From Methylovirgula sp. (GTDB lineage Bacteria; Pseudomonadota; Alphaproteobacteria; Rhizobiales; Beijerinckiaceae), in NCBI GenBank assembly GCA_052144065.1, contig JBKQRA010000144.1, positions 2,488 to 66,487 of the forward strand: a DNA stretch of 64,000 nt. Direction: 5' to 3'. This document shows positions 3 through 24,646 of the stretch, one piece after another. A program made the position numbers and the translations under genes. Below the pieces are notes generated by a model. That model had not been told where the DNA came from. It saw nothing but the letters and a program-made list of their open reading frames with translations, and did no database searches. Position 1 is the stretch's first letter. The number at the start of each line of letters is the position of its first letter.

Positions 3-2279
3 GAGCGCATTCCGCTCCTCTTCCTGTCGTTTACGGAAGATGCGTGGTTCATCGGCAAGAACGAAGGCGGCGTGCTCGTCGTCGGCGCCCTTTTGGCGCG
101 CCTCATCTTCTTGAGCGCGATCATTCTTGCCGGCTGGGCCGTCTTCGCGCGGCAGATTCATGCCTTTGTGTTGAGCCGGCGCCGCGGCCATATGGTGGTG
201 ATCGGCAATACGCCGACGGCGTGCGAGGTCGTCGCCCATCTCGAGACCAAAAAACGCAAATTCACCCATGTCGTCGGGACGGACACGGAGCTTGCCGGCG
301 AAAGTTCGCGGCTTGCTTTGCCCTTCAGCCTGCCGGTGATCGAAAGGCCGGCCGCCCTCGCCAGCGCCATGCGGATCATCGTCGACACGGGCGACATAGC
401 GACGAATATGGCGCTGACGCGCGCGATCCATCATGCCTTCGGCGAGCGGGCGCCGCCGGTCTCCTGCAACATTGAATCGACGCATCTCGCGGATGAGTTC
501 GGCGAATTGATTACCGGACAAAGCGACATATTGATCTATGACGAGGCGCGGCTTTCGGTGCGCGATACGCTGGCGCGCCATCCGCTCTACGCCTCGGCCG
601 ATCGGCAGGGCGCGGCGCGCGTGCATTTGCTGGTGATCGGCTTCGGCCGCTTCGGCCGCGTCTTTTTCGAAGAAGCTGTGCAGGATTCGGTCGCCGGCGC
701 TCTGGAAAAGCCTTTCGTCACCGTGATCGACCGGCAGGCCAAGGCGCGCGCGGCGGCGTTCGAGCGGGACAAGCCCCAGCACCGGATGGCGGCCGATACG
801 GTCTTCATCGAAGCGGATGTGTTGGAGACGCCGCTCGATGCGCAGGCAAGTGCGGCGCGCGCTATTCTTTATGATCGCGACGATGCGGCGCCAGTGACGG
901 CGATCGCTCTGTGTCTTCCAAGCGATGCCGAGAATGTCGCGGCGGCCATGACACTGCGCGCCATGCGGCGGCGCAGCGGCCGCTGCTTTGCACCGATTTT
1001 CATGCATATGCGCGAAGGCACGATCAACGGCACAGTGTTCATTGAAGCGGACAAGGATCGCATCGCGGATCCCTTCGATTCGGTCATCCCGCTGCGGCTC
1101 AGCCGCGAGGTATTGGCGGTCGACATCCTGGCCGAAGGCGAGCGCGACAGAATCGCCAAGCGCTTTCACGCGGCTTTCCGCGAGCTTTCGGACGATCGTC
1201 AGGCGGCGAATGTGTCCTGGCTCGCCTTGCAGGAAACCTATCGGCGTGCCGATCGCCATGCCGCAGATCACATGGCGGCAAAGCTCTGGTCGCTCGGGCT
1301 TGCGACGGAACGCCATTCGACGGAGAGCCCTTTCGCCGTCGATGCGGATTGGGAAAAGGCGCGGGTCGTGGCACCGGGAGATCATGAGCGCCTGTCGCGG
1401 CTCGAACATGAGCGCTGGATTGCCGACCGTGTGTTGGAAGGCTGGCAATTTGCGGACAAGCGCGACGATGATTCACGCCTTCACCCCGATCTCGTGCCCT
1501 TCGAGGACGTGTGCGGCAAGGATCAGGGCAAGGACCGCAAGCAAGTCGAGATACTTTATGCTCTGGCCAAGGAGGCGACGCGCGACAGAGGCAAGCGATT
1601 CATGCCGGAGCTGCGCATCGGTCTGACGGTCGCGCCGGGCATCACGCCTGCTATGGTCGAAGCCGCCGGCACAGAGATCGCGCAGCGGCTTGCAGAACCA
1701 CTTGCGGATCTTGCCGCGCATCATGTCATCACAATCATTTCGTCGCTGGCGATCGGCGGCGACTTCACTCTGGTCGAAACTGCGATCTCCAAGCTCAAGC
1801 AGCGGCTGCGGCTCAAGGAGCGGGCGGAGGGATGGAGCCTCGACAATGCAGATCTGCGGCTGCTCGCGATCGAAGGCGTTCCCTATCCCGTTCAGCTGAA
1901 GCAGGCCTTCAAGACGGCGCAGCTGCGCGAACATCAAATTCATGTCGGCCTGGAAGCGCGGCGGCATTTATTCCACCGGTTCAACCGGGTCGAAGTGGCG
2001 CGCATCGGCGTGCGGGGCCATTCCGACGATGCGATTTACCGGGACGCGGCTCTCTATGAGATGGGACGGCGCAAGGTGAGCGCCTATCTGGCGCGCCGCG
2101 CCGATGTGCTTTGCGTGCTTGGGCACAAGGGTGAAACGGGCAATGCCGATCTCCGCGAGCTGATCGGATTTTGGGCTGATCCATCGTCCATTCCCGCGGC
2201 GCTCGATTGCGGCCCCTCGCGCAGCGGCGCGTCCCGAACGAAAGCGGCGATGGAAACGCTGATCCAGATCGCCGTGTAG
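3..2279 (+). CDS. Membrane protein with TM segment, two RCK/TrkA-N-like Rossmann domains, RyR domain and C-terminal SLOG-like domain (5' truncated by window)
   Basis: The frame is open from nt 3 (ERIPLLFLSF...), so the start lies upstream of the window. Hydrophobic segment VLVVGALLARLIFLSAIILAGWAVF; Rossmann-like HMVVIG and HLLVIGFGRFG; RyR-type LSRLEHERWIADRVLEGW...RLHPDLVPFEDV. The C-terminal ISSLAIGGD...YLARRADVL resembles VSPLARGAD...FVVRHSDIL of the SLOG domain at 22682. Confidence 0.75.
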   Translation, partial: ERIPLLFLSFTEDAWFIGKNEGGVLVVGALLARLIFLSAIILAGWAVFARQIHAFVLSRRRGHMVVIGNTPTACEVVAHLETKKRKFTHVVGTDTELAGESSRLALPFSLPVIERPAALASAMRIIVDTGDIATNMALTRAIHHAFGERAPPVSCNIESTHLADEFGELITGQSDILIYDEARLSVRDTLARHPLYASADRQGAARVHLLVIGFGRFGRVFFEEAVQDSVAGALEKPFVTVIDRQAKARAAAFERDKPQHRMAADTVFIEADVLETPLDAQASAARAILYDRDDAAPVTAIALCLPSDAENVAAAMTLRAMRRRSGRCFAPIFMHMREGTINGTVFIEADKDRIADPFDSVIPLRLSREVLAVDILAEGERDRIAKRFHAAFRELSDDRQAANVSWLALQETYRRADRHAADHMAAKLWSLGLATERHSTESPFAVDADWEKARVVAPGDHERLSRLEHERWIADRVLEGWQFADKRDDDSRLHPDLVPFEDVCGKDQGKDRKQVEILYALAKEATRDRGKRFMPELRIGLTVAPGITPAMVEAAGTEIAQRLAEPLADLAAHHVITIISSLAIGGDFTLVETAISKLKQRLRLKERAEGWSLDNADLRLLAIEGVPYPVQLKQAFKTAQLREHQIHVGLEARRHLFHRFNRVEVARIGVRGHSDDAIYRDAALYEMGRRKVSAYLARRADVLCVLGHKGETGNADLRELIGFWADPSSIPAALDCGPSRSGASRTKAAMETLIQIAV

Positions 2280-2287
2280 CGCGGCGT

Positions 2288-3640
2288 TCACTTCGCCTTT
2301 GCACGCTTTTCCAGTTCGGCGATGATGTCGTCGAGCTTTTTGTCTGCCTTTTCGGCGGCGCGCCAGGCATCGCGGATCAGGCCAAGATTGCGGGCTGTCG
2401 TCTCGGCGTTCCAGCCTTCTTCGAGATGGACCAGCGCCTCGGGCAGCATTTGCTTGGCCTGCTTGAGATCGCCGGCGATGACGGCCAATTCGACGAGCGT
2501 CGCGAAATCCCAATAGTCGGCGGCGCCGCGCGCGATCTTGCGCTCCACCGCATAGCGCACGACAGGTGCGAGACGTTCGATGCGCGGATCGTCGGGATCG
2601 TTGAGCGCCATGAGGGTGAGCGCATTGATGCCTGGATAGGCATCGCGCCAATCGGCTTCAAATCCTTTGAGATAGGCGTCGATTGCCTTTTTCGCCCAGG
2701 CGGGCGCTTCAAAATCATCCGCTTTTACAGCGGCGTCCCAGCGGTCTTTGTAAACGCGGCCGAGGAGGCCGTAGGTTTCGCTCGACGCGCCGTGTTCATC
2801 GATGAGAGCGATCAAGACAGTTTCAGCCTCATGACGCTGGCCATCACGATTGAGCGCCATCGCATATTGTTCGCGCGGCATGGTCGAATGGGCGAGCACC
2901 GGGTCCATCGCCTTATAAAGTTCGATCATTTTCTTCCAGGCGCTGGCGGCGCGATAGGAAAGTAATAGATCGATGACAATGCCGGCCTGCACCACGGAAA
3001 TATCGCCGAGGTCCTTGCAGATCTGATCGAGAGCGGCGAGCCGTTCGTCACCCTTGAGGCGCCGGGCCTCGGCGAGCTTGCTCTTATAGTCGCGCGAATA
3101 GGTGACCTGCTGGCGGAAGACATCGGTCTTGCTGTGCGCGATGTCGTGCGGCTTCAGCCCGTCGATCAACTTGAAAAGGGGGCTGTCCGCTTCGCCATGC
3201 GTCTTGCAGTCATCGAGGCGCTTGGCGAGGGCCGCCCGAGCCGCCGCCGCGTCCTTGGGCCTTGCGCGCTCATCAAGACCATAGGGGAGGGTCCGCAGAT
3301 GCCCGACATCGAAGGGAAGACGGCTCGCATCGGCCGCCATCAGCACGGTCGTCTGTGGCCGCAGCGCATGCCGGACACCGAGCTCGTAATAGACATTGGG
3401 ATTGAAGATGGTGAGGTCGGCGATGGCAAATTCGCTGAGCATGAGCCGCTCATACATCGCCTTGTGGATGAGGCCGGCTTGCACCTCCTCGTCGGCGCGG
3501 ATCGGCTCGAAGCCGACATCATGGATCGCCGGTTCGATAATGTCCTTGTAAATGACGTCGAAATCGATCTCGCGGCCGGAATTGTCGGACTTTTTGCCGA
3601 ATGGCATGATGACGAAACAAATGGCACGCAGCGACAACAT
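2288..3640 (-). CDS. DUF4071 / MAP3K(ASK)-like protein: nucleoside deoxyribosyltransferase/hydrolase-like domain plus TPR-like helical domain
   Basis: CFVIMPFG...IRADEE...IADLTIFNPNVYYELGVRHA...LPFDV, then a helical region with ETYGLLGRVYKDRW, AYPGINALTL and DYWDFATLVELAV. GGAGAG RBS upstream of ATG 3640. Confidence 0.8.
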   Translation of the reverse strand: MLSLRAICFVIMPFGKKSDNSGREIDFDVIYKDIIEPAIHDVGFEPIRADEEVQAGLIHKAMYERLMLSEFAIADLTIFNPNVYYELGVRHALRPQTTVLMAADASRLPFDVGHLRTLPYGLDERARPKDAAAARAALAKRLDDCKTHGEADSPLFKLIDGLKPHDIAHSKTDVFRQQVTYSRDYKSKLAEARRLKGDERLAALDQICKDLGDISVVQAGIVIDLLLSYRAASAWKKMIELYKAMDPVLAHSTMPREQYAMALNRDGQRHEAETVLIALIDEHGASSETYGLLGRVYKDRWDAAVKADDFEAPAWAKKAIDAYLKGFEADWRDAYPGINALTLMALNDPDDPRIERLAPVVRYAVERKIARGAADYWDFATLVELAVIAGDLKQAKQMLPEALVHLEEGWNAETTARNLGLIRDAWRAAEKADKKLDDIIAELEKRAKAK

Positions 3641-6037: not shown

Positions 6038-9000
6038 ATGTCGCGTATTTTTTTATCTCATTCCAGCAAGGATAATTTCGAGGCGCTCGCGCTGCGCGAC
6101 TTTCTCGTTGGCGAGGGCTTCGACGATGTGTTTCTCGATCTCGATCCCGATCGCGGCATTGCCGCCGGCGAGCGTTGGGAACGCGCGCTGCATGCGGCGG
6201 CCAAGCGTTGCGAAGCTGTCATCTTCTTCATTTCCGGCAATTGGCTCGCGTCCGGTTGGTGCCTGAAGGAATATTCGCTCGCCCGCGCGCTCAATAAGAA
6301 GCTCTTCGCGGTCATCATCGATCCGCAGAAGGCGATTGACGATCTGCCGCCGGAATTGGCCGGCACATGGCAGGCGGTCAATCTGACGGCCGGCCAGGAC
6401 GGCCGCATTTTCCGCGTCGAGCTGCCCGGCTCGCATGAAGAAAAGCATGTCACATTTTCGATCGATGGCTTGCGCCGGCTGAAGCACGGTCTCGATAAGG
6501 CTGGACTCGATCCGAAATTCTTCGCGTGGCCGCCGGAGGACGATCCCAAGCGCGCGCCATTTCGCGGGTTGAAGCCGCTCGAAGGCGTCGATGCCGGCAT
6601 CTTCTTCGGCCGCGATGCGCCGATCGTCGAGGCGCTTGACCGGCTGCGCGGTTTACGCGAGGCCGCGGCACCCCGTTTCCTTGCTATCCTCGGCGCCTCG
6701 GGCGCCGGCAAATCGTCGTTTCTGCGTGCCGGCCTGCTGCCGCGCCTGACGCGCGACGACGTGAACTTCCTGCCGCTGCCGCCGATCCGGCCCGAGCGCG
6801 CCGCGCTCACCGGCGAGACGGGTCTCTTGGGAACGCTCGAAAAGCTCTTTCCCCATCGCGCTCGCGCCGAGCTGCGCGCGGCGATCCTCGCCGGCGCCTC
6901 GGGCGTCCGGCCCTTGCTCGCCGAACGGGCGGGGGCCGCCTTTGCGCAGACGCTCACCGATGCGCAGCAAGGCGGAAGGCCGCCTTTGATCGTCTTTTCC
7001 GTCGATCAGGCGGAGGAGTTGTTTCGCAGCGAGGGCATGGAAGAGAGCATGGCGCTGCTCGCGCTGCTCCGCGATCTCGCGGTCGAGGATACGCCGGCCA
7101 TTGCGGTGTTGTTCGCTATCCGTTCGGATGCCTATGACGGACTTGAGAACGCCAAGCTGCTCGAAGGTCTGCCGCAGAGTACGCTGCCGCTGCTGCCCAT
7201 GCCGCGCGGCGCCTATATGGAGGTGATCGAAGGTCCGGCCCGCCGTTATGTTTCGGCCGGTGGAACGCTCGCCATCGAACCGCGGCTGACGCAAGCACTC
7301 CTTGAAGATCTGGAGCAGGGCGGCGGCAGCGATGCGCTGCCGCTCTTGGCCTTCACGCTTGAACAGCTGTTTCTGGAATATGGCGCGACGGGTGCCTTGC
7401 GCTATCAGGACTATCGCGCCTTCGGCGGTTTGCGCGGTGCCATCGACAAGGCGGTGACGCGCGCCTTTGCCCGTGCCGATGCCGATCCGCGCATTCCGCG
7501 AGAGCAGAAAAGCCGCGAAGCGCTGCTGCGGCGCGGCCTCATTCCCTGGCTCGCCGGTATTGATCCGGACAGCAAAAATCCGCGTCGCAATGTGGCGCGG
7601 CGTTCCGACATTCCCGACGAAGCAAGACCTTTGATCGATCTCTTGGTCGAGGAGCGGCTTCTCTCTACCGATACAAAGCGCATCAAAGATCCGGTGACGG
7701 GCGAAGATACGCAGATTGTCACCATTGAGCCGACGCATGAGGCTCTGCTGCGGCAATGGGGTCTGCTCGAAGGCTGGCTTGCCGAGGATCTCGGACGGCT
7801 CGCGACACTCGAAGGCGCCAAGCGCGGCGCCCGCGACTGGGATGCGAACGGCCGCGCCGATGCCTGGCTCGCCCATCATGGGCAGAGGCTCGCCGAAGCC
7901 TCGGCGCTCATCGACGAACGCCCCGACATTGCCGCCCGTTTCGATGCCGTCGACAAGGCCTATCTCGCGGCCTGCCGGAGCAAGGAAGCCGAAGAGCAAG
8001 CAAAAGAAGAGGCGCGGCGGCGCGAGCGCGAGGAAGAACAGGCGCGCCGTCTGGCCGATGCCGAAAAACTTGCCGCCGCCAATAAACGGACGGCGCAGCG
8101 CACCGGCATCGGGCTTGTCGCAGCGCTTGCGCTAGCTGGTCTCGCCGGCTGGCAAGGCTATGTCGCCACCCAGGAGAAGCAGGCGGCCTTGCAGCAGCAG
8201 CAGCGCGCCGAGAAGGATTTCAACGCGGCGAAACAGGCGATCAACGATCTCATTTTCAATGTCGCCGAACGGCTGACGGATATGGCGGGCGTGCCAATCG
8301 TCACCATTCGCCAGATTCTCGGAACCGCGAAGACGACCATCGATACGCTCGCGGCGAGCGAGCCGGACGACAAGGAATTGCAGCGCAGCCATTGGGCCAT
8401 GCTTGTCGATTTCGTCGACACCTATCTTCGGGCTGGCGATCTGGCTGACGCCAAGACCTCCGCCGATCAGGCGCTGGTCATTGCGTTGGAACTTGCCAAG
8501 GATCTCAAAAATGCCCAAGCCCAACGCGATCTGTCTGTGTCCTACAATAAGGTCGGCGATGTCTTCGTGGCCGAAGGCCATCTCAATGATGCGCTGAAGG
8601 CCTATCAGTCGGGACTTGCGGCGATCGCTCCCATCGCGAAGGCAAATCCCGGCAATGCCGGCTGGCAGTTCGATCTTGGCGTGAGCAATGAGCGGATCGG
8701 CGACGTTCAAATGGCGCAGGGCAATCTGGCCGCGGCGCTGAAATCCTTCGAGACGCGCCGCGATATCGTCGCCGCTCTCGTCAAATCCGATCCGAAGACA
8801 TTGGCATGGCAGCGCGATCTATCTGTCGCGAATGAAAAGGTCGGCGACGTGCTTGTCGCTCAAGGCCATCTGGACGATGCCTTGAAAGCCTATCAGATCT
8901 GTCTCGAGATCGCGACGAGACTTGCCGATGCCGATGCGAATAATGCCGGCTGGCAGCGTGATCTCTCTGTGGTCGACAATAAGATTGGCGACGTCCTCGT

Positions 9001-10132
9001 CGCGCAGGGTCATGTGGATGATGCGCTGCAGGCCTATCAAAAGGCGCTGGCGATCGGCGCGCGTTTGGCGAAGTCCGATCCCGACAACGCCGGCTGGCAG
9101 CGCGATCTGGCCTTCTCTTACAACAAGATCGGCGACATGCTCAAACTCCAGGGCCATCTCGCCGATGCGCTCAAATCCTACCAGGCGGGCCTTGTCATTT
9201 CGCAGCGTCTAGCGAAGTCCGATCCAGGCACGACCTTGTGGCAGCGCGACGTCTCCTTCTCCTATACGCGCATCGGCGATGTTCTAGCGGTGCAGGGACA
9301 GATCGACAATGCGCTGCAATCCTATCAAAAGGGCTTTGCGATCATCGATAGGCTCGCCAAGCTCGATCCGGCCGATGCCGGCCTGCAGCGCGAATTGTCT
9401 GTCTTCAACAATAAGCTCGGCGATATGTATGTCGCGCAGGGTAATCTTGCGCAGGCGCTGCAAGCCTATAAGTCCGGCCTCGACATCATGCAGCGGCTGG
9501 TCAAGGCCGATCCCGCCAATGCCGGCTGGCAATTCGATCTCGGCATCAGCAATGAGCGGGTAGGTGACGTTCAAATGAGCCAGAACCAGCCGGCCGAGGC
9601 GTTGAAATCCTATTCCGCCAAGCGCGACATCATCGCCGGACTGGTCAAGGCCGACCCGGGCAATGCCGCCTGGCAACGCGATCTCTCCGTCGCGATCGAA
9701 AAAATCGGCGATGCGCTGAAGACGCAGAGCCGTCTGCCCGAAGCGCTGCAGTCCTATCGGACGTGTCTCGAGATCAGACAGCGGCTCGTCAAGATCGATG
9801 CGGGGAATAGCGGGTGGCAGCGCGATCTGTCGATCGCTTATGAAAAGGTCGGCGATGTGCTGTCCTTGCAGAAGAATAATGCCGACGCGCTGCAAGCCTA
9901 TCAGGCATCATTGCAGATCCGCCGGCTTCTCGCCAAGGACAAGTCGAATGGGCAGGCGCAGATCGATCTTGTCATTGCGCTCGCCAAGGCCGCGGATCTG
10001 TCGGCCGACCCGCGGTCGAATTACCAGGAGGTTCTGACGATCCTGACCGAGCTTGACCAGCAGGGCCGGTTGACGAAAGTTCAGCAAGGCTGGATCGAGT
10101 GGGTCAAGAAGAAGCTCGCCCCATCGCAATAG
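6038..10132 (+). CDS. TIR - nSTAND1 NTPase - TM - TPR-repeat protein (NLR-like transmembrane receptor)
   Basis: TIR IFLSHSSKD...WCLKEY; APFRGLKPL; Walker A GASGAGKSS; Walker B VDQAEELF; LPLLAFTLEQLF; HEALLRQW; charged coil; TM GIGLVAALALAGLAGW; ten 48-aa repeats. Confidence 0.9.
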   Translation: MSRIFLSHSSKDNFEALALRDFLVGEGFDDVFLDLDPDRGIAAGERWERALHAAAKRCEAVIFFISGNWLASGWCLKEYSLARALNKKLFAVIIDPQKAIDDLPPELAGTWQAVNLTAGQDGRIFRVELPGSHEEKHVTFSIDGLRRLKHGLDKAGLDPKFFAWPPEDDPKRAPFRGLKPLEGVDAGIFFGRDAPIVEALDRLRGLREAAAPRFLAILGASGAGKSSFLRAGLLPRLTRDDVNFLPLPPIRPERAALTGETGLLGTLEKLFPHRARAELRAAILAGASGVRPLLAERAGAAFAQTLTDAQQGGRPPLIVFSVDQAEELFRSEGMEESMALLALLRDLAVEDTPAIAVLFAIRSDAYDGLENAKLLEGLPQSTLPLLPMPRGAYMEVIEGPARRYVSAGGTLAIEPRLTQALLEDLEQGGGSDALPLLAFTLEQLFLEYGATGALRYQDYRAFGGLRGAIDKAVTRAFARADADPRIPREQKSREALLRRGLIPWLAGIDPDSKNPRRNVARRSDIPDEARPLIDLLVEERLLSTDTKRIKDPVTGEDTQIVTIEPTHEALLRQWGLLEGWLAEDLGRLATLEGAKRGARDWDANGRADAWLAHHGQRLAEASALIDERPDIAARFDAVDKAYLAACRSKEAEEQAKEEARRREREEEQARRLADAEKLAAANKRTAQRTGIGLVAALALAGLAGWQGYVATQEKQAALQQQQRAEKDFNAAKQAINDLIFNVAERLTDMAGVPIVTIRQILGTAKTTIDTLAASEPDDKELQRSHWAMLVDFVDTYLRAGDLADAKTSADQALVIALELAKDLKNAQAQRDLSVSYNKVGDVFVAEGHLNDALKAYQSGLAAIAPIAKANPGNAGWQFDLGVSNERIGDVQMAQGNLAAALKSFETRRDIVAALVKSDPKTLAWQRDLSVANEKVGDVLVAQGHLDDALKAYQICLEIATRLADADANNAGWQRDLSVVDNKIGDVLVAQGHVDDALQAYQKALAIGARLAKSDPDNAGWQRDLAFSYNKIGDMLKLQGHLADALKSYQAGLVISQRLAKSDPGTTLWQRDVSFSYTRIGDVLAVQGQIDNALQSYQKGFAIIDRLAKLDPADAGLQRELSVFNNKLGDMYVAQGNLAQALQAYKSGLDIMQRLVKADPANAGWQFDLGISNERVGDVQMSQNQPAEALKSYSAKRDIIAGLVKADPGNAAWQRDLSVAIEKIGDALKTQSRLPEALQSYRTCLEIRQRLVKIDAGNSGWQRDLSIAYEKVGDVLSLQKNNADALQAYQASLQIRRLLAKDKSNGQAQIDLVIALAKAADLSADPRSNYQEVLTILTELDQQGRLTKVQQGWIEWVKKKLAPSQ
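8522..9958 (+). repeat. Ten in-frame 144-bp (48-aa) TPR-like repeats
   Basis: Units start at 8522, 8666, 8810 ... 9818, with consensus QRDLSVxxxKxGDVLxxQGxxxDALxxYQxxLxIxxRLAKxDPxNAGW. Confidence 0.9.
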
Positions 10133-17736: not shown

Positions 17737-20052
17737 TCAGGGCTTTGTGATCAAATCGGCGGCTTGCCAAGCGGCGAGGCCGCCTCGGTACCAATAGACG
17801 TTGGAATAGCCCATCTGCAACGCACGCAGCGCTGCATTATAGCCTTCCCATGATTTGGAATCTCTACTGAAGAATATGATAGCGGTGTTGGAGGACGTAA
17901 CTGCCTTCGACAAATCATCGAAAAGCTGCCGTTGGACTTTATCCTTAGCATCGAATGTTCCTCCCGCGCCGGCATAAGGCCAGCGAAGAGAAGACGGAAT
18001 TGTCCGTGCGTGGGGCTCACTATCAACGTCTATAAGCAATATAGATACTTTCCTGTCGGTGCCAGGGAGCTTTCCGTTTGCGAGCATATGATAAAGGTCT
18101 TGTGTTGTAATGGCATTGCCGCCAGGAATTGTTCGCGGTGTAGGACCGTTTAATTTATTCGAGAGTGCGTCTGTCGGAGCAATCTGGTCGTCTTTGTCTT
18201 CGTCTTGAAACGTTCCGACGGGCGGCGGTCCAAACTCGGCGACGATCTTGGCATTCAGCTCTTTGGCGCTTTGCTCCCCCTCATATCGCGCCTGTATCTC
18301 CTTTAGCTGCTTCACCTGCTCCTGCAACTTAACTTGTGTGCTAGCAAGTACAGCGTTCATGTTGTCGAGCGCAGCCTGACTTTTGTTTAACTGATCGATC
18401 GTTTTGTCGAGCTTGTCCTTTTGTTGCTTGAGTTCGCCGATTGTTGTTTTTAGCTTTTCGTTCGCGTGCTGAGCTACCCACCATTCCGTTCCAGCGGTCA
18501 CGGACGATGCGATCAGAATGGCAAAAATTCCCGCGCCCGATATCCAGAATAGACGCCGCCGCGCTGTTTCGGCCTTCTCGCTCTTTTCGAGAAAAGCGAC
18601 AGCATCCTTGAAATGCCCACCGTAGCGCTGAGCCCAGGCTTCGTTGGGCTTTGTCTCCTCGTACCAAGCAACAAGATTGGCAAGCTCGCGGCCGCGGATC
18701 GGTTCGGCATCCCCCATGCGGTCCTTGAGTCGACGCCAGTTCTGCGCCGCTGTCGTTTCATCGTGCAGCCATTCCGCCATTTTTTTCCACTGGCGGATCA
18801 AGCTCTCATGGCTGATGTCGATCCATTGATCGGCATCGATCGGCACGCGTTTCTCTGGGCCAGGATCGCGCAGTTCTGGTGCGAGAAAATTGCAGCCCGG
18901 CGCGCAGAAGGTATAGAGCACGTCTTCGACCGCGCGGACATTGCCGTCGCAGAGCGCGATGAGTTCGCCGAAGCGCTGCGGTCGTCGCACGGCATCGGCG
19001 ACGCTCGTGCCTGAAACGAGCGCGCGAAAGATCTTTTCGGCTGTGCCGGCGAGACCTTTCTTCGTGAGTTCCCCCAGCAAAATATTGCCGTGCGTATTGA
19101 GCGCGCCGCCCAAGCCGCCGATCGCTTTGTAGTCCGAGAGCCGTAGCTGAATATAGCCGCCGCTGCCCGTATCCTTCGCATCGAGCCAAAGCCGGTTCAG
19201 CGTATATTGCAGCAGCGGCAATTGATCCGCGCGACGGACGAGGCGATCGAGCTGATCGGCGGCCCCGCCATCGTCCCACGGCGCGAAATTGGCGAGATCG
19301 TTGAGGATCTGAGTGACTAGAGGCTCTTCGACCTTGATACCGCAGACTTCTGCCGGACCGACGATGGCGCGGCGGCACTGTTCGCGCGTCATCCGCGGCG
19401 TGAGGACCATGCCTTTGCTGATCGTCTCGGCAAGGCCCTCCATCAAGGCGCAGGCGCCGAGATATTCGGAGCGCATGGTGAGGGTGACATAGATCGGAAA
19501 TTCGGGGCTGTGTGCGCTCTCGAGCAGCAATGCGGAGAAGGCTTCAGACTCTTCCTTGCCGGCATAGTCTTGATAGCGGAACAATTCTTCGAACTGATCG
19601 ACGAGCAGCAGCAGATTGGTCTTGGGCTTCGTCGGCAGATTGCCGTCCTGGCACCATTCGATGATCGAACGTGGACCGCGGGCGAGAAAGCCACGCAATA
19701 TCTTCGTCTCGATGTCAGTCGGCTCTTTGCCCTTGGCAGTCACCTTGAGGAGTTCGCGCGCCAGATTGGTGAGCGGCGTGCTGCCGGGCCTAAAATCGAT
19801 GACGCGCCAGCGCGCGCCGGCCTGTTCCATGAGGCCGATTTCGAGCGCTTCGAGAAGGCCGGTCTTGACGATCGAGGATTTGCCGGTACCGGACGAGCCG
19901 AGGACGGCGAGAAAGCGCGTCTCGGCGAGACGATCGACGAGCGTATGGATGCAGTCTTCACGGCCGAAGAAGAGATCGGTCTCGTCGCGACGGAACGATC
20001 TTAGGCCGGGGTAGGGCGCGCGCGCGACCTCGCCCGCTATCTCGTCAAACAT
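17737..20052 (-). CDS. nSTAND1 NTPase - TM - coiled coil - rhodanese-like domain
   Basis: APYPGLRSF; Walker A GSSGTGKSS; Walker B VDQFEELF; LPLLQYTLNRLW; ISHESLIRQW; TM LFWISGAGIFAILIASSV; K/Q heptads; C-terminal PTPRTIPG...YNAALRALQMGYSNVYWYRGGLAAW. Confidence 0.88.
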   Translation of the reverse strand: MFDEIAGEVARAPYPGLRSFRRDETDLFFGREDCIHTLVDRLAETRFLAVLGSSGTGKSSIVKTGLLEALEIGLMEQAGARWRVIDFRPGSTPLTNLARELLKVTAKGKEPTDIETKILRGFLARGPRSIIEWCQDGNLPTKPKTNLLLLVDQFEELFRYQDYAGKEESEAFSALLLESAHSPEFPIYVTLTMRSEYLGACALMEGLAETISKGMVLTPRMTREQCRRAIVGPAEVCGIKVEEPLVTQILNDLANFAPWDDGGAADQLDRLVRRADQLPLLQYTLNRLWLDAKDTGSGGYIQLRLSDYKAIGGLGGALNTHGNILLGELTKKGLAGTAEKIFRALVSGTSVADAVRRPQRFGELIALCDGNVRAVEDVLYTFCAPGCNFLAPELRDPGPEKRVPIDADQWIDISHESLIRQWKKMAEWLHDETTAAQNWRRLKDRMGDAEPIRGRELANLVAWYEETKPNEAWAQRYGGHFKDAVAFLEKSEKAETARRRLFWISGAGIFAILIASSVTAGTEWWVAQHANEKLKTTIGELKQQKDKLDKTIDQLNKSQAALDNMNAVLASTQVKLQEQVKQLKEIQARYEGEQSAKELNAKIVAEFGPPPVGTFQDEDKDDQIAPTDALSNKLNGPTPRTIPGGNAITTQDLYHMLANGKLPGTDRKVSILLIDVDSEPHARTIPSSLRWPYAGAGGTFDAKDKVQRQLFDDLSKAVTSSNTAIIFFSRDSKSWEGYNAALRALQMGYSNVYWYRGGLAAWQAADLITKP

Positions 20053-21611
20053 AGCTCGCCAACAAATTTCTGAATCAAATCGTCTGTTGCGCCGTTGCGA
20101 TAATCAATTGGATCGAAACTTGTCGCCATGCCGAGTTCGTCGGGATGGGCGCCGGGAGCCAGAAGCAATTTCTTGTAACGCGGAGGCTTGTCGCGCCGCG
20201 CCGCAAGCTTGATGTAACGGCGCAACTGCGCTCGTACCCAGTGGGGCGGCGCTTCGCCGAACACGAGGAGAAGACCGTCGCAATTGATCCAATTCTCGTC
20301 GATCTCTTCGTCCTTTTGCTTGGCGTTGCCTTTGTAGCTGGCCATAAAGGCATTGCGCCGGCGGGACTGAAAAGCCTTCAGCAGCGATTTTGCGAGATCC
20401 TGATCATCGTCATAGGCGTTGATGAAGAAGGCGCTCTCGTCGACCGGCGCTTCGGCGTTCGCCTGCTCGGCGGGCGCTTCCGCCAACCGGCGCTTGGTTT
20501 CTTCCTCGCGCCGGCGGGCCTCTTCTTCCCGGCGCTTTGCGGCCGCAGCCTCCGCCGCCTGCCGTTCGAAGGTGCCTTTGATTTCCTTTAGAAATTCTTG
20601 CAGGCCCATGACCCGCACGTCGGGGCCGCTCAGCAATTGCTTGTCGTAGTGGGTCACGGCTTCGGGATTGATGTCGGGCCGATGCCATTGCAGCGTCGGC
20701 ACGCCACGGCGTTTGGCGGCGGCATATTGGAAGACGGAGTAGCTTTGCGAGGGCTCGGCCTCGCTTTGCTTGAGATCGCTCGGCCGTTTGGAAGGCACCT
20801 GGCTCAGCAGCTGGACGAAGAGATCGGCCTTTTCGAGATCGGCCCGCACCGCCTTGGCGAAATCATTGCCGCCACCCGGATAGTCGCCATCGGGAAGGAC
20901 GCGGGCGCCATATTGTTCCAGATAGGTGCGGACCTGCAACGCTTCGTCATAGAGATCATCGGTCGCTTGCGCGAGCAAGACCGTCTTGCCGCTCAGCGGC
21001 AACGATGCGGCCTTCGCCGAGGCGGGCGCCGCACCGGTTGAGGCGCGCGCCTTGAGTTCGCGCAAGAGGCTGACGCAATTCTCAGCGAGTTCCGCGATGC
21101 TCTTGCCATAGCTGTCGCTGTTGCTGGGCTTCAGCGTGTAATCGATCTTGGTCTCCAGATCCTTGTAATAGAAGCGGGTGCGCTTGATGCCCATGCCTTT
21201 GGGACCGGCAAGCAGGCCGCTGATCTGCGGATTTTCCTCGAAGGGCAGAATTTCGATCGCGACAATCCGATTGATGCTGGATAACGCACTGTCGCCTTCC
21301 CGCACGGCATCGTTGAAAGCGGTCAGCTCCTTGATCGTCCAGTCGCGCGCGACATAGGCGCGCGAAAGAACCGGGATGAAGATCGCCGATCCTTTGGCAT
21401 TTTCGACCAGCGAAGCCAGTTCTTGATGCGCCTCGAGATTCGAATTGTCGAAGAAGAGGGAGACATCGTCGCTGCCGAGGCGCTTGCGCAGATGGCTTTC
21501 GAAATTGTTGCGGAATTCGCTAACCCATCTGACTTTTTGCTCATCCGGCTCATTGTCGAGATGCGTATAGCTGATGAAAATGTCGTGCAAGAATCCTGGA
21601 ACAAAAGTCAT
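20037..21611 (-). CDS. Protein with three TIR-like domains
   Basis: Domain 1 DIFISYTHLD...SRAYVARDWTIKEL; domain 2 TVLLAQAT...ADLFVQLLS...YSVFQY; domain 3 AFFINAYDDD...CDGLLLVFGEAPPHWVRAQL; overlaps the start of the nSTAND1 gene by 16 nt. Confidence 0.78.
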   Translation of the reverse strand: MTFVPGFLHDIFISYTHLDNEPDEQKVRWVSEFRNNFESHLRKRLGSDDVSLFFDNSNLEAHQELASLVENAKGSAIFIPVLSRAYVARDWTIKELTAFNDAVREGDSALSSINRIVAIEILPFEENPQISGLLAGPKGMGIKRTRFYYKDLETKIDYTLKPSNSDSYGKSIAELAENCVSLLRELKARASTGAAPASAKAASLPLSGKTVLLAQATDDLYDEALQVRTYLEQYGARVLPDGDYPGGGNDFAKAVRADLEKADLFVQLLSQVPSKRPSDLKQSEAEPSQSYSVFQYAAAKRRGVPTLQWHRPDINPEAVTHYDKQLLSGPDVRVMGLQEFLKEIKGTFERQAAEAAAAKRREEEARRREEETKRRLAEAPAEQANAEAPVDESAFFINAYDDDQDLAKSLLKAFQSRRRNAFMASYKGNAKQKDEEIDENWINCDGLLLVFGEAPPHWVRAQLRRYIKLAARRDKPPRYKKLLLAPGAHPDELGMATSFDPIDYRNGATDDLIQKFVGELCLTR

Positions 21612-22681: not shown

Positions 22682-24646
22682 GTGACGGAAGGGGCGTCGT
22701 CGCATTTCCCACAGCTTGCATTGCGCATCGGCATTACCGGCGCGCGCAGCCTCGATGCGGCCCGCATCGACGATCTGCGGAAAAAGCTGCGCGACGTGCT
22801 GGGTTCGGTTAAAGCCGACATGCGGCGGCTCGCCGAAGACAAAGACGTGCGCGCGCATTACGCCGGCGTGGAGACGGGCGAGCCCTGGTTGCGGTTCGTT
22901 TCGCCTTTGGCGCGCGGAGCCGACCGTCTCGCGGCCGAGACCGCCCTCGATCTTGGCTATGATCTCTATGTCCCGATGCCTTTCGACCGGGCGGAATATG
23001 AGAAGGATTTCCGGGGCGCCCAAGATCCGCATGAGCCGCCGCTGTCGGCGGCCGAGGATCTCGCGCAATTCACAACGCTGCTGCAGCGCGCGGGGCAATC
23101 CGGCCAAGCTTGGCTCACCCTCGACGGCGGTCGGGAGGAAGAAAACCGCGCCTATGAAGCTGTCGGTCGCTTCGTCGTGCGCCACAGCGACATTCTGATT
23201 GCCATTTGGGATGGCAAGCCGAGCAACGGCCGCGGCGGCACAGCGGAGATCGTCGAATATGCGCTGACAAGCGGCGTGCCGGTCTGGTGGATCCATGCCA
23301 CCGAGGCAAGAGACCCTGTCTGGCTCACCAGCCAGCTGGATTTGCGCGATCCGCGCGCGCCGACGATTGAGCCCCTTGCGGCTGTGCGGCGCTATATCGA
23401 TCGGCAAATTCCGCCGCCGCCGCCCGTGTCGCGCGAACGCGAGGGGCTGGTTGAAGCCGTTGCGCGCTTCGGTCAGCGGCGAAATGTGTCGCCACTTGAT
23501 GTCTATTTCGGCGAAGATGGGAAGCCGCCGGCGTTTTGGGCCAGCGCCTATTCCGCGATGATGCGTTGGGCAGTGCCGCCGACTCCCCCGCCGTCGTCCC
23601 CCATTTCATCGCTTCCCAAACCGTCATCGCCGACTGGCGCCGCCGACACTTATTGGCGCGAGCGTTATACGCCGGCCGATCTGTGCGCCGGCCAATATGC
23701 GAGCCGGTATCGTTCGGCCTATGTCTGGCTGTTTGCTTTTGCGACGGCGACGCTCGTGTTCGGCGCGCTCGCCGCGGTGGCGCATGGCGTGAAGCCCTTG
23801 GTCATTGCGTCCATCGCGCTTGAATTGGCGATGCTGCTGTTGATCTGCGTGGTGGTGAATTCGGCCATCCGTGGCGATTGGCATGAGCGCTTTGTCGAAT
23901 ATCGTCTGCTCGCAGAATTATGTCGCAAGCAGCAGGTCTTGGCATTGCTCGGCAGCGGCGTATCGCTGGGCGCCGTCGGCCGCATGATCCTGCGCGAAAT
24001 CGAAATCGCAGCAAAACAGAAAGATAAAGGCGTCCACCCGGTGGGGCACGTGCCGGATCGCGCCGCCTGGGTTGCCTGGCTCTTCACCGCTTGGGAACGC
24101 GCCGCGCCGATGCCGACGGGCGAGCTCGCTGCCTCATTGCATACGGTCGTCCATGAGCAGGTGATGCAAGGATTGATCGACGAGCAATTGCATTATCATC
24201 GCGAGCGTGGGGCGCGGTCGGTGCATGCCGATAAGAAATTCTCGAAATTCGGTCAGTGGTGCTTCATCGCGGTGATTGTCTGCGTGCTGTGCAAATTCGC
24301 CGTGGTAGGGTTCATTCAACCGCTGGATGAGGATAAAGCCTCTTTCGTCCGCGAGGCGGGTGAAATCGGCGTTCTGTTTCTGACATGGCTTGCGATCGTG
24401 CTCCCGGCCGTCTCGGCCGCTTTTTTCGGCATTCGCAGCTATGCGGAACTGCAGCTCCTCGCCGAGCAGTCGCGGCATATGGTCGATGAGCTTGAAAGCG
24501 CCAAGCGGCGGATCGAGCGCATTAATTTGAAGCGCCCGCTGTCAGCTGAAGATATCGGCGCCGAAACCCATGGCGTTGCGACCTTGATGCTGCAGGATCT
24601 CGACGGATGGTCGCGCTTGTTCAAAGTCAAAGCGATCGAACCTTAG
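22682..24646 (+). CDS. SLOG-like domain fused to two SLATT (DUF4231-like) 2TM modules
   Basis: IGITGAR, VSPLARGADRLAAE, VPMPF, YEAVGRFVVRHSDILIAIWDG...GRGGTAEIVEYA...GVPVWWI; SLATT-like TM pairs ending WHERFVEYRLLAE and AELQLLAEQSRHM; GGAGG RBS before GTG 22682. Confidence 0.8.
   Translation: MTEGASSHFPQLALRIGITGARSLDAARIDDLRKKLRDVLGSVKADMRRLAEDKDVRAHYAGVETGEPWLRFVSPLARGADRLAAETALDLGYDLYVPMPFDRAEYEKDFRGAQDPHEPPLSAAEDLAQFTTLLQRAGQSGQAWLTLDGGREEENRAYEAVGRFVVRHSDILIAIWDGKPSNGRGGTAEIVEYALTSGVPVWWIHATEARDPVWLTSQLDLRDPRAPTIEPLAAVRRYIDRQIPPPPPVSREREGLVEAVARFGQRRNVSPLDVYFGEDGKPPAFWASAYSAMMRWAVPPTPPPSSPISSLPKPSSPTGAADTYWRERYTPADLCAGQYASRYRSAYVWLFAFATATLVFGALAAVAHGVKPLVIASIALELAMLLLICVVVNSAIRGDWHERFVEYRLLAELCRKQQVLALLGSGVSLGAVGRMILREIEIAAKQKDKGVHPVGHVPDRAAWVAWLFTAWERAAPMPTGELAASLHTVVHEQVMQGLIDEQLHYHRERGARSVHADKKFSKFGQWCFIAVIVCVLCKFAVVGFIQPLDEDKASFVREAGEIGVLFLTWLAIVLPAVSAAFFGIRSYAELQLLAEQSRHMVDELESAKRRIERINLKRPLSAEDIGAETHGVATLMLQDLDGWSRLFKVKAIEP

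Follow-up and report, generated by a model that had tools for sequence, protein, structure and literature searches.

The window analysed here is a 64,000-nucleotide stretch of a Methylovirgula sp. genome (C144:2488-66487, where C144 is contig JBKQRA010000144.1 of a 3.77 Mb assembly in 226 contigs), and the gene under study lies at its left edge, where an open frame on the forward strand spans positions 3..2279 and its 5' end is cut off by the window border. The upstream contig DNA places the true start at the ATG at C144:2343, 145 nt 5' of the window, which is the same methionine start used by all database homologues. The product is 807 residues long; its initiator methionine is residue 11 (M11) of the 817-codon GTG-to-stop translation P0001, whose numbering is used below unless stated otherwise, with residue n at window nucleotide 3n-177. 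All features of the gene lie on the forward strand.

From the N- to the C-terminus, the protein comprises a first transmembrane helix (TM1), a P-loop-like re-entrant segment, a second transmembrane helix (TM2), two RCK domains, an RyR (R12) domain, and a C-terminal alpha/beta domain; this order follows from the position of RCK1 directly after TM2, at which distant relatives carry a clear TrkA_N domain. We regard the architecture and the underlying homologies as secure, with little room for doubt. The KD19 hydropathy profile peaks at residues 19-33 and 79-97 (807-residue numbering) and nowhere else in the protein. These peaks, together with the charge distribution, delineate TM1 (approximately residues 26-46 of P0001, 5' of the window) and the inner helix TM2 (72..155), after which comes the basic stretch SRRRGH. 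The 36-residue loop between the two helices bears a net charge of -3 and its flanks bear +2 and +4; an acidic loop between basic flanks predicts that both termini are inside and that the loop is outside, so that the two helices would surround an extracytoplasmic re-entrant segment.

RCK1, a TrkA_N-like Rossmann domain directly following TM2 (189..605), has its GxGxxG motif degenerated to GNTPTA and is recognized by the TrkA_N domain of relatives and by alignment to the TrkA_N domain of the channel P0163, discussed below. RCK2, the second Rossmann domain (606..1055), retains an intact GFGRFG motif and is placed by the family alignment and by a weak TrkA_N match at residues 269-379. In the Pfam scan this match is sub-threshold (19.8-20.3 bits, cut-off 23.8); in distant full-length relatives, TrkA_N exceeds the cut-off at 30-48 bits (best 47.8, E 2e-12). 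NCBIfam and PADLOC scans of the protein returned nothing beyond the Pfam matches. The initial annotation of the window had listed a transmembrane segment, two Rossmann (RCK/TrkA-N-like) modules, and an RyR domain. Both Rossmann modules and the RyR domain are present and TM2 had been seen correctly, but the membrane part is not a single segment, as TM1 lies 5' of the window. Reading the upstream sequence, a check that the annotation had suggested, thus yielded two transmembrane helices, an acidic outer loop with basic flanks, and a channel-like N-terminus.

The homology of this N-terminus to channels is most apparent in comparison with P0163, a 522-residue protein encoded on a metagenomic contig (L083) beside the family relative P0161. 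P0163 possesses a TTVGYGE filter, matches Ion_trans_2 (E 3e-15) and TrkA_N (E 1e-14), and ends in a C-terminal RyR domain. A profile of the target family aligns to it with an hhalign probability of 99.1% (E 6e-19); the 470 aligned columns begin at the pore helix, include both RCK domains, and reach the end of the RyR domain. Among channels of the Ion_trans_2-RCK-RCK-RyR type, the target family thus appears to be a derived branch whose filter has changed. The P-loop-like segment (3..71; residues 58-82, WYERIPLLFLSFTEDAWFIGKNEGG) contains a putative pore helix followed by T-x-D-x-W-F in place of TVGYG. In the pore register, W-x-D/E-x-x-Y/P-x-L-L-x-F-T lies over the pore helix and the family consensus T-x-D-G-x-F over T-T-V-G-Y-G. 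The target itself reads FTEDAWF; the close clade has T-x-D-G/A-W-F with D72 and W74 invariant, and distant members keep T-x-D-x-x-F. Within the close clade, conservation is higher in the P-loop segment than in TM1 (mean 0.76 vs 0.64). As the TVGYG selectivity filter is lacking, K+ flux is not expected and we do not file the protein as a K+ channel; its pore is rather a predicted cation path without K+ selectivity, possibly lined by an acidic ring.

The RyR domain, together with its preceding helices, occupies 1143..1580, with the Pfam core at 1386-1547 (PF02026, residues 521-574, 33.4-33.6 bits, cut-off 27.4). The same Pfam family includes RyDEP, gp78 of phage DyoEdafos (MN234187). RyDEP, the founding member of its family, cleaves the cyclic ADP-ribose isomers 2'/3'cADPR, which four of its residues contact and which RyDEP-family proteins bind at nanomolar affinity (PMC13232231). 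RyDEP residues 75-117 align without gaps to residues 528-570 of P0001 (BLASTP E 5e-8; hhalign probability 95.4%), and all four ligand residues are matched: H75, which contacts the terminal ribose and is catalytic, by H528 (codon 1407-1409); W78, which stacks on the adenine, by W531 (1416-1418); H100, which contacts the phosphates, by H553 (1482-1484); and D117, which contacts the ribose and is catalytic, by D570 (1533-1535). Among 12 diverse family members, W531 and D570 never vary, and the histidines H528 and H553 are each conserved in at least 90%. The RyR domain is also the best conserved region of the target, with a mean column identity of 0.77-0.87. Because of this conservation and the complete set of RyDEP ligand residues, the RyR domain is the better candidate for a sensor of an ADP-ribose (ADPR)-derived signal than the decayed SLOG-derived domain that follows it.

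The C-terminal domain (1587..2276; residues 588-817) was modeled with AlphaFold2 at a mean pLDDT of 88.7 and a pTM of 0.87. The model has alternating beta and alpha elements in six beta-alpha units, arranged as a Rossmannoid three-layer alpha/beta fold with parallel strands. Searches of the domain against Pfam, NCBIfam, PADLOC, and PDB sequences, both as a single sequence and as profiles, returned nothing meaningful; matches to CD86 and Gtr2 were judged to be due to chance. Its closest relative is encoded in the same window, as the N-terminal domain (22697-23389) of the SLOG-SLATT protein P0002 (22640..24646, forward strand). A pairwise BLASTP alignment between the two is not significant (E 1.2), but it falls in the same register as an alignment made by eye in the initial annotation, and that alignment holds at the profile level: hhalign of the C-terminal family against the P0002 SLOG domain gives a probability of 98.2% and E 4.1e-14 over 163 columns across the whole domain. 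A hidden Markov model (HMM) of the extended C-terminal family also detects P0002 (26.4 bits, in three colinear pieces). In the reverse direction, an HMM of the P0002-type domain finds the distant full-length relatives P0158 (E 8e-12) and P0159 (E 3e-10) and misses the window protein itself (E 0.08).

The P0002 domain, in turn, has an informative structural model (pLDDT 89.1). Foldseek matches it at a probability of 1.00 to YpsA (2nx2, E 2e-6) and DprA (3uqz, 5mll, 4ljk, and 3maj, E 1e-4 to 2e-3), as well as to TM1055, ShosA, and the MoCo carrier protein, and at probabilities of 0.7-1.0 to the N-termini of TRPM2 and TRPM8 and the ThsA SLOG domain. All of these are SLOG superfamily members (cf. 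PMC6459960). At the sequence level, phmmer with the P0002 N-terminal domain against PDB sequences found nothing, and a Pfam scan of 42 P0002-family members found only SLATT/DUF4231 in the C-terminal half and a single YpsA match at E 0.31. Three lines of evidence lead to the SLOG assignment: i) the target domain is homologous to the P0002 domain, ii) the P0002 model matches SLOG structures, and iii) the P0002-type HMM finds the C-termini of distant relatives. By this transitive route, profiles and models indicate that the C-terminal domain of the target is a YpsA/DprA-type SLOG derivative. Profile alignments of both domain families to DprA and LOG alignments from related genomes gave only E 0.08-0.3, but the DprA-versus-LOG positive control failed as well (E 0.048); this test therefore has no power and was set aside.

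What the target has retained of the SLOG motifs is uneven. Five distant family members (P0021, P0022, P0024, P0158, and P0159) carry SPLAPGAD and WDGxPxxGxGGT, the motifs of the P0002 N-terminal domain. In the target, the distal glycine-rich loop WDG...GGT, the absence of which had already been noticed in the initial annotation, is replaced by LGHKGETGN (about 2121-2144), and there are no conserved glycines at this place in the close clade. The YpsA clade is marked by a GxD/E motif following strand 2 that is predicted to bind the substrate (PMC6459960); in the target, this motif is kept as G644-G645-D646 (1755-1763), with G644 invariant in 17 diverse sequences.

The entire architecture is common to 17 close relatives of about 800 residues and 54-65% identity, of which the named ones are annotated as 'RyR domain-containing protein [Methylovirgula sp.]'. 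The family is rare: a search of 1.84 billion representative proteins with a profile built from the last 230 residues retrieved only 18 clusters at E <= 1e-3, nearly all of them either proteins of about 800 residues with the domain at the same position or short proteins of 100-460 residues, likely fragments, with the domain at or near the C-terminus. Among the 31 species genomes of the genus, PF02026 occurs in six, as one copy each and always inside the gene island described below; five of these genomes carry the full-length gene and the sixth a SLOG-less paralogue. This paralogue, P0164 (673 residues, congener G009), consists of two transmembrane helices, a degenerate P-loop, two RCK domains, and the RyR domain. 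The pairing of RyR with SLOG is seen outside channels too. P0020, a 1100-residue protein from a JGI metagenome, has a soluble architecture in which an N-terminal region with no Pfam match is followed by an AAA ATPase, an RyR domain, and a P0002-type SLOG domain (91.5 bits to the P0002-type SLOG HMM, WDG...GTG motif intact). The RyR and SLOG domains therefore behave as a mobile, reusable two-sensor module.

The island in which the gene resides has a recurrent order in the window clade: a DUF1003 gene, a GerE/LuxR regulator, the target, an optional convergent TIR-like/TPR-S gene, and an ECF-like sigma/anti-sigma pair, then an optional TIR-nSTAND1-TPR gene, a TPR-kinase, and an FHA-trypsin gene, with an nSTAND1-rhodanese gene and its multi-TIR partner, the SLOG-SLATT gene, and ARPP-1 farther along. 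In the window, the convergent neighbor (2288..3640, reverse strand) encodes a TIR-like N-terminal domain and MAP3K_TRAF_bd/TPR-S, as identified with Pfam and the PADLOC TIR-effector model. The PADLOC model matches its N-terminal ~120 residues at E 1.9e-9, and there is no Pfam TIR match. The motifs FVIMPFG and NVYYELG of this neighbor presumably recall nucleoside 2-deoxyribosyltransferase-like domains. It is possibly a signal generator or sensor, and it stands beside the target in three of five Methylovirgula-type contig contexts. Further TIR proteins of the island are encoded at 6038-10132 and 20037-21611. An operon of the two genes was rejected, the genes being convergent with stop codons 8 nt apart. 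In all six gene-carrying genomes of the genus, the contig with the gene also carries a SLOG-SLATT homologue at a distance of 9-25 kb, and there is a TIR_2 domain 0.3-15 kb from the gene, the latter in no operon with it and within a single lineage. SLOG-SLATT occurs without the target in 10 genomes of the genus; the co-occurrence has a one-sided Fisher p of 0.011-0.026, which ignores shared descent. In G009 (L086, G009:C4, 12338-18461), the genes for P0164, the TPR-kinase, and FHA-trypsin follow one another with overlapping ends, the stop codon of the first reaching into the start of the second and the second overlapping the third; this suggests a functional tie of P0164 to the kinase and protease module.

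On the domain order, homologies, residue conservation, and synteny observed here, we build a proposal for the oligomeric state, conduction, ligand identity, and island role of the protein. The target would be a cation-flux effector gated by an ADPR-type signal, a derived 2TM P-loop channel with RCK gating in which the RyR domain is the main sensor; we give this proposal about an even chance. Subunits probably assemble as tetramers, whose pore would be built from TM1, the re-entrant loop, and TM2 and would have a T-x-D-G/A-W-F filter. The invariant aspartate would place an acidic ring in a cation path that lacks K+ selectivity and might admit divalent ions. The two RCK domains of each subunit would couple cytoplasmic events to the gate, and the RyR/R12 and YpsA/DprA-type SLOG domains appended to them, the pocket residues of which are evident in the alignments, would act as sensors. 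The RyR domain may sense an ADPR-derived signal that the island's TIR proteins produce, with the decayed SLOG domain as a second or a structural module. Ligand binding would then open the channel, and the ion flux would either depolarize the cell or serve as a signal. A more specific version, which we put forward only tentatively and hold to be clearly less probable than the general proposal, is that of a host-encoded cation channel opened by a TIR-made cADPR isomer bound to the RyR/R12 domain; its acidic T-x-D-x-W pore would let divalent or non-selective cations through, as a killing or signaling output.

Several observations weigh against this proposal, and they are best considered together with the alternatives that they favor. 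Concerning the pore, Pfam finds no Ion_trans_2 domain in the target protein, a six-frame Ion_trans_2 search of the genome found its two ordinary K+ channel genes and not the target, and the pore region alone aligns to the Ion_trans_2 alignment in the expected register but with a probability of only 7% (hhalign E 0.005); a pore without the K+ filter might not conduct. The protein could then be a non-conducting, membrane-anchored sensor or scaffold that passes a nucleotide or envelope signal to the sigma/anti-sigma, TPR-kinase, or FHA-trypsin proteins. Besides the lost filter and the missing Pfam channel match, this explanation can draw on the gene overlap in G009, where the SLOG-less P0164 runs into the TPR-kinase start codon with FHA-trypsin next, and on the window clade, where the target always precedes the run of sigma/anti-sigma, kinase, and protease genes. 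We nevertheless consider it quite unlikely, as the re-entrant segment has an invariant Asp/Trp motif and is conserved above TM1, the architecture is colinear with that of true channels, and operon coupling fits a channel effector equally well. Concerning the RyR domain, RyDEP uses the same H/D pair for catalysis, and the domain might therefore cleave the signal instead of sensing it. In the corresponding scenario, H528 and D570 would hydrolyze 2'/3'cADPR at the membrane, resetting or buffering TIR signaling, and the channel-like part would be an anchor. The conservation of the dyad and of both other pocket residues is compatible with such an enzyme, yet among eight RyDEP homologues tested, six were binders of the signals and not one cleaved them, although the residues are conserved (PMC13232231), and a simple hydrolase would need neither two RCK domains nor a conserved P-loop; we regard a signal-terminating enzyme as improbable.

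Concerning the C-terminal domain, its own model has no match in the PDB at E <= 1e-3 by Foldseek. The best match by probability is the LOG-family protein YgdH (9us2_B, 0.80, TM-score 0.35-0.39); carbamate and glutamate kinases and G-alpha, which lead by E-value, were disregarded (TM-score < 0.3, root mean square deviation > 11 A). The two canonical SLOG loops are moreover the least conserved stretches of the target (mean column identity 0.57-0.64), and together with the lack of a significant match for its model this makes SLOG-mediated gating doubtful in the target clade. A reading in which the resemblance to SLOG is accidental and the domain represents an independent Rossmann-like fold could draw on the missing structure match, the missing Pfam and PDB sequence matches, and the non-significant DprA/LOG profiles. 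It is highly improbable given the hhalign result (98.2%, E 4e-14) to a domain whose model matches YpsA and DprA at a probability of 1.00, the detection of P0158 and P0159 by a plain P0002-type HMM (in round figures, E 1e-11 and 3e-10), and the powerlessness of the DprA/LOG test. Concerning the context, the TIR-like neighbor is convergent, non-operonic, and missing in some relatives, and the synteny comes from one genus and is therefore not independent evidence. These points, with the dispensability of the TIR-like gene, would suit a housekeeping or stress cation channel under cellular nucleotides (NAD(H)/ATP on RCK2, ADPR-type ligands on RyR/SLOG) that is found in the island through inherited synteny only and serves neither immunity nor conflict. 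So would the neighborhoods of the distant full-length relatives P0158 and P0159, which have intact SLOG (GGT) loops and adjoin GerE, LacI, ABC-permease, and HMGL-like/aldolase genes, and the fact that the most widely kept neighbor is the upstream GerE/LuxR regulator and not a TIR gene. However, the contigs of these distant relatives extend over only 5-6 kb, members of the RyR and SLOG families are known to sense or bind TIR-made signals, and within the genus the gene has a scattered distribution (5 of 31 genomes, with the SLOG-less paralogue in one more) and is never found outside the island, a pattern more in line with an accessory conflict gene than with a housekeeping gene. A housekeeping role is thus, in our estimate, unlikely.

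Taken together, the ADPR-gated effector proposal revises, and in part upholds, the suggestion of the initial annotation that the protein is a ligand-gated flux effector of the island. The channel-like N-terminus and the SLOG-derived C-terminus are in keeping with it; gating by SLOG is doubtful in this clade, and a flux of K+ is not expected. SLOG ancestry is upheld, with the structure comparison succeeding through the P0002 homologue rather than through the target's own model, but the RyR domain, overlooked as a sensor, is the stronger candidate with its full set of cADPR residues. The island association stands as synteny with TIR and SLOG-SLATT genes in the genus, tempered by its restriction to that genus and by the ordinary-looking neighborhoods of two distant relatives.

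The membrane part resembles the MthK, GsuK, and Kch K+ channels, which combine a 2TM P-loop pore with an RCK ring and share with the target the succession of TM1, pore helix, and TM2 with RCK directly after the inner helix; GsuK also has two RCK domains per subunit. In contrast to these channels, the target has T-x-D-G/A-W-F in place of TVGYG and no Ion_trans_2 match, and adds RyR and SLOG domains after the RCK pair. With RyDEP it shares the Pfam family and the four ligand residues (H, W, H, D) at identical spacing, but RyDEP is a free phage sponge or glycosidase, whereas the target is host-encoded and fused to a channel-like protein; the presence of an R12 domain on a P-loop cation-channel protein is a feature of animal RyRs. 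P0002, of the same SLOG subfamily and the same island, and the type VII Thoeris effector ThsH, a SLATT protein that responds to a cADPR signal, are likewise membrane proteins with a nucleotide-sensor domain. They differ from the target in that its effector part is P-loop/RCK and not SLATT, and in that its SLOG domain is C-terminal with a decayed GGT loop. ThsA of type I Thoeris (SIR2-SLOG) similarly fuses a SLOG sensor to an effector, and Foldseek relates its SLOG domain (7uxs) to the P0002 domain at a probability of 0.90; this SLOG belongs to another clade than the YpsA/DprA-like target, and the ThsA effector is an NADase rather than a predicted membrane flux. TRPM2, gated by ADPR through an N-terminal SLOG domain (MHR1-2), also places SLOG on a P-loop cation channel and is, with TRPM8, among the fold matches of the P0002 domain. 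It is, however, a eukaryotic 6TM protein with an N-terminal SLOG domain of the LSDAT clade, and the resemblance may be convergent. Finally, type X Thoeris is a two-gene operon of a TIR protein and an 'ion channel' effector, ThsK, with a signal molecule that is unknown (10.64898/2025.12.03.692087). Compared by description only, ThsK parallels the target as a predicted ion-channel effector linked to a TIR gene, although the target is in no operon with one.

In the literature library covered by full-text searches, no RyR-domain channel effector encoded by a host was described. Animal physiologists have long debated a direct action of cADPR on ryanodine receptors, and a 2026 preprint on RyDEP, which established that free phage R12 domains bind 2'/3'cADPR, explicitly calls for tests on channel-attached R12 domains (PMC13232231). 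The target, a small bacterial and probably homotetrameric homologue of P-loop channels with a single R12 domain and a complete set of ligand residues, encoded beside TIR enzymes, could be expressed, reconstituted, and tested directly for this purpose. As such, it is a bacterial candidate, amenable to experiment, for an ion channel gated by an immune signal. If the more specific cADPR version of the proposal is true, bacteria would offer a prototype for the principle that 'cADPR gates a ryanodine-receptor-type channel'. The protein would also add, to the known designs of TIR signaling, a channel-type effector with tandem RyR and SLOG nucleotide-sensor families. The series of SLOG loops, intact in distant relatives and decayed in the target, with SLOG absent altogether in the congener, will be useful for dissecting which module senses.

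Further observations concern the relatives and surroundings of the gene. The metagenomic contig that encodes P0163 carries two convergent RyR-domain channel-type genes side by side (L083, 91-3460), P0161 with the filter FTLDPQSF and P0163 with TTVGYGE, which may be a heteromeric or a paralogous pair. A family-level relative with no transmembrane helix, P0165 (629 residues; L087 = G122:C1, 2816-4702), comprises two RCK domains, an RyR domain, and a very degenerate SLOG-like tail, and its gene adjoins that of a PrsW-family intramembrane protease. Phage DyoEdafos, which a tblastn search of the phage collection with the target RyR region did not find, encodes 5 kb downstream of RyDEP gp78 a 138-residue SLOG-family protein, gp89, annotated as 'DprA-like DNA processing chain A' (L088, MN234187, 10387-10803); the two domain families are thus found together in a phage genome as well. 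The 19-kb stretch of G009 that contains the P0164 gene also encodes a SLOG-SLATT protein, a TIR protein, a DUF4062-nSTAND1-TPR protein, and a DDE transposase. Upstream of the target, the DUF1003 gene and the GerE/LuxR regulator (L002, 953-2230) are found in most relatives (L005/L006, L085, L082). The N-terminal part of the regulator is weakly similar to an MmyB-type ligand-binding domain, and since GerE is kept even beside the 36%-identical P0158, it may be a dedicated regulator of the target. Still farther upstream, at the very beginning of the contig (L002 1-870; C144:1-870), lies a highly repetitive protein frame built of units of about 10 residues, ALTTAQV(A/S)NLTTD(E/Q), the opposite strand of which is also open.

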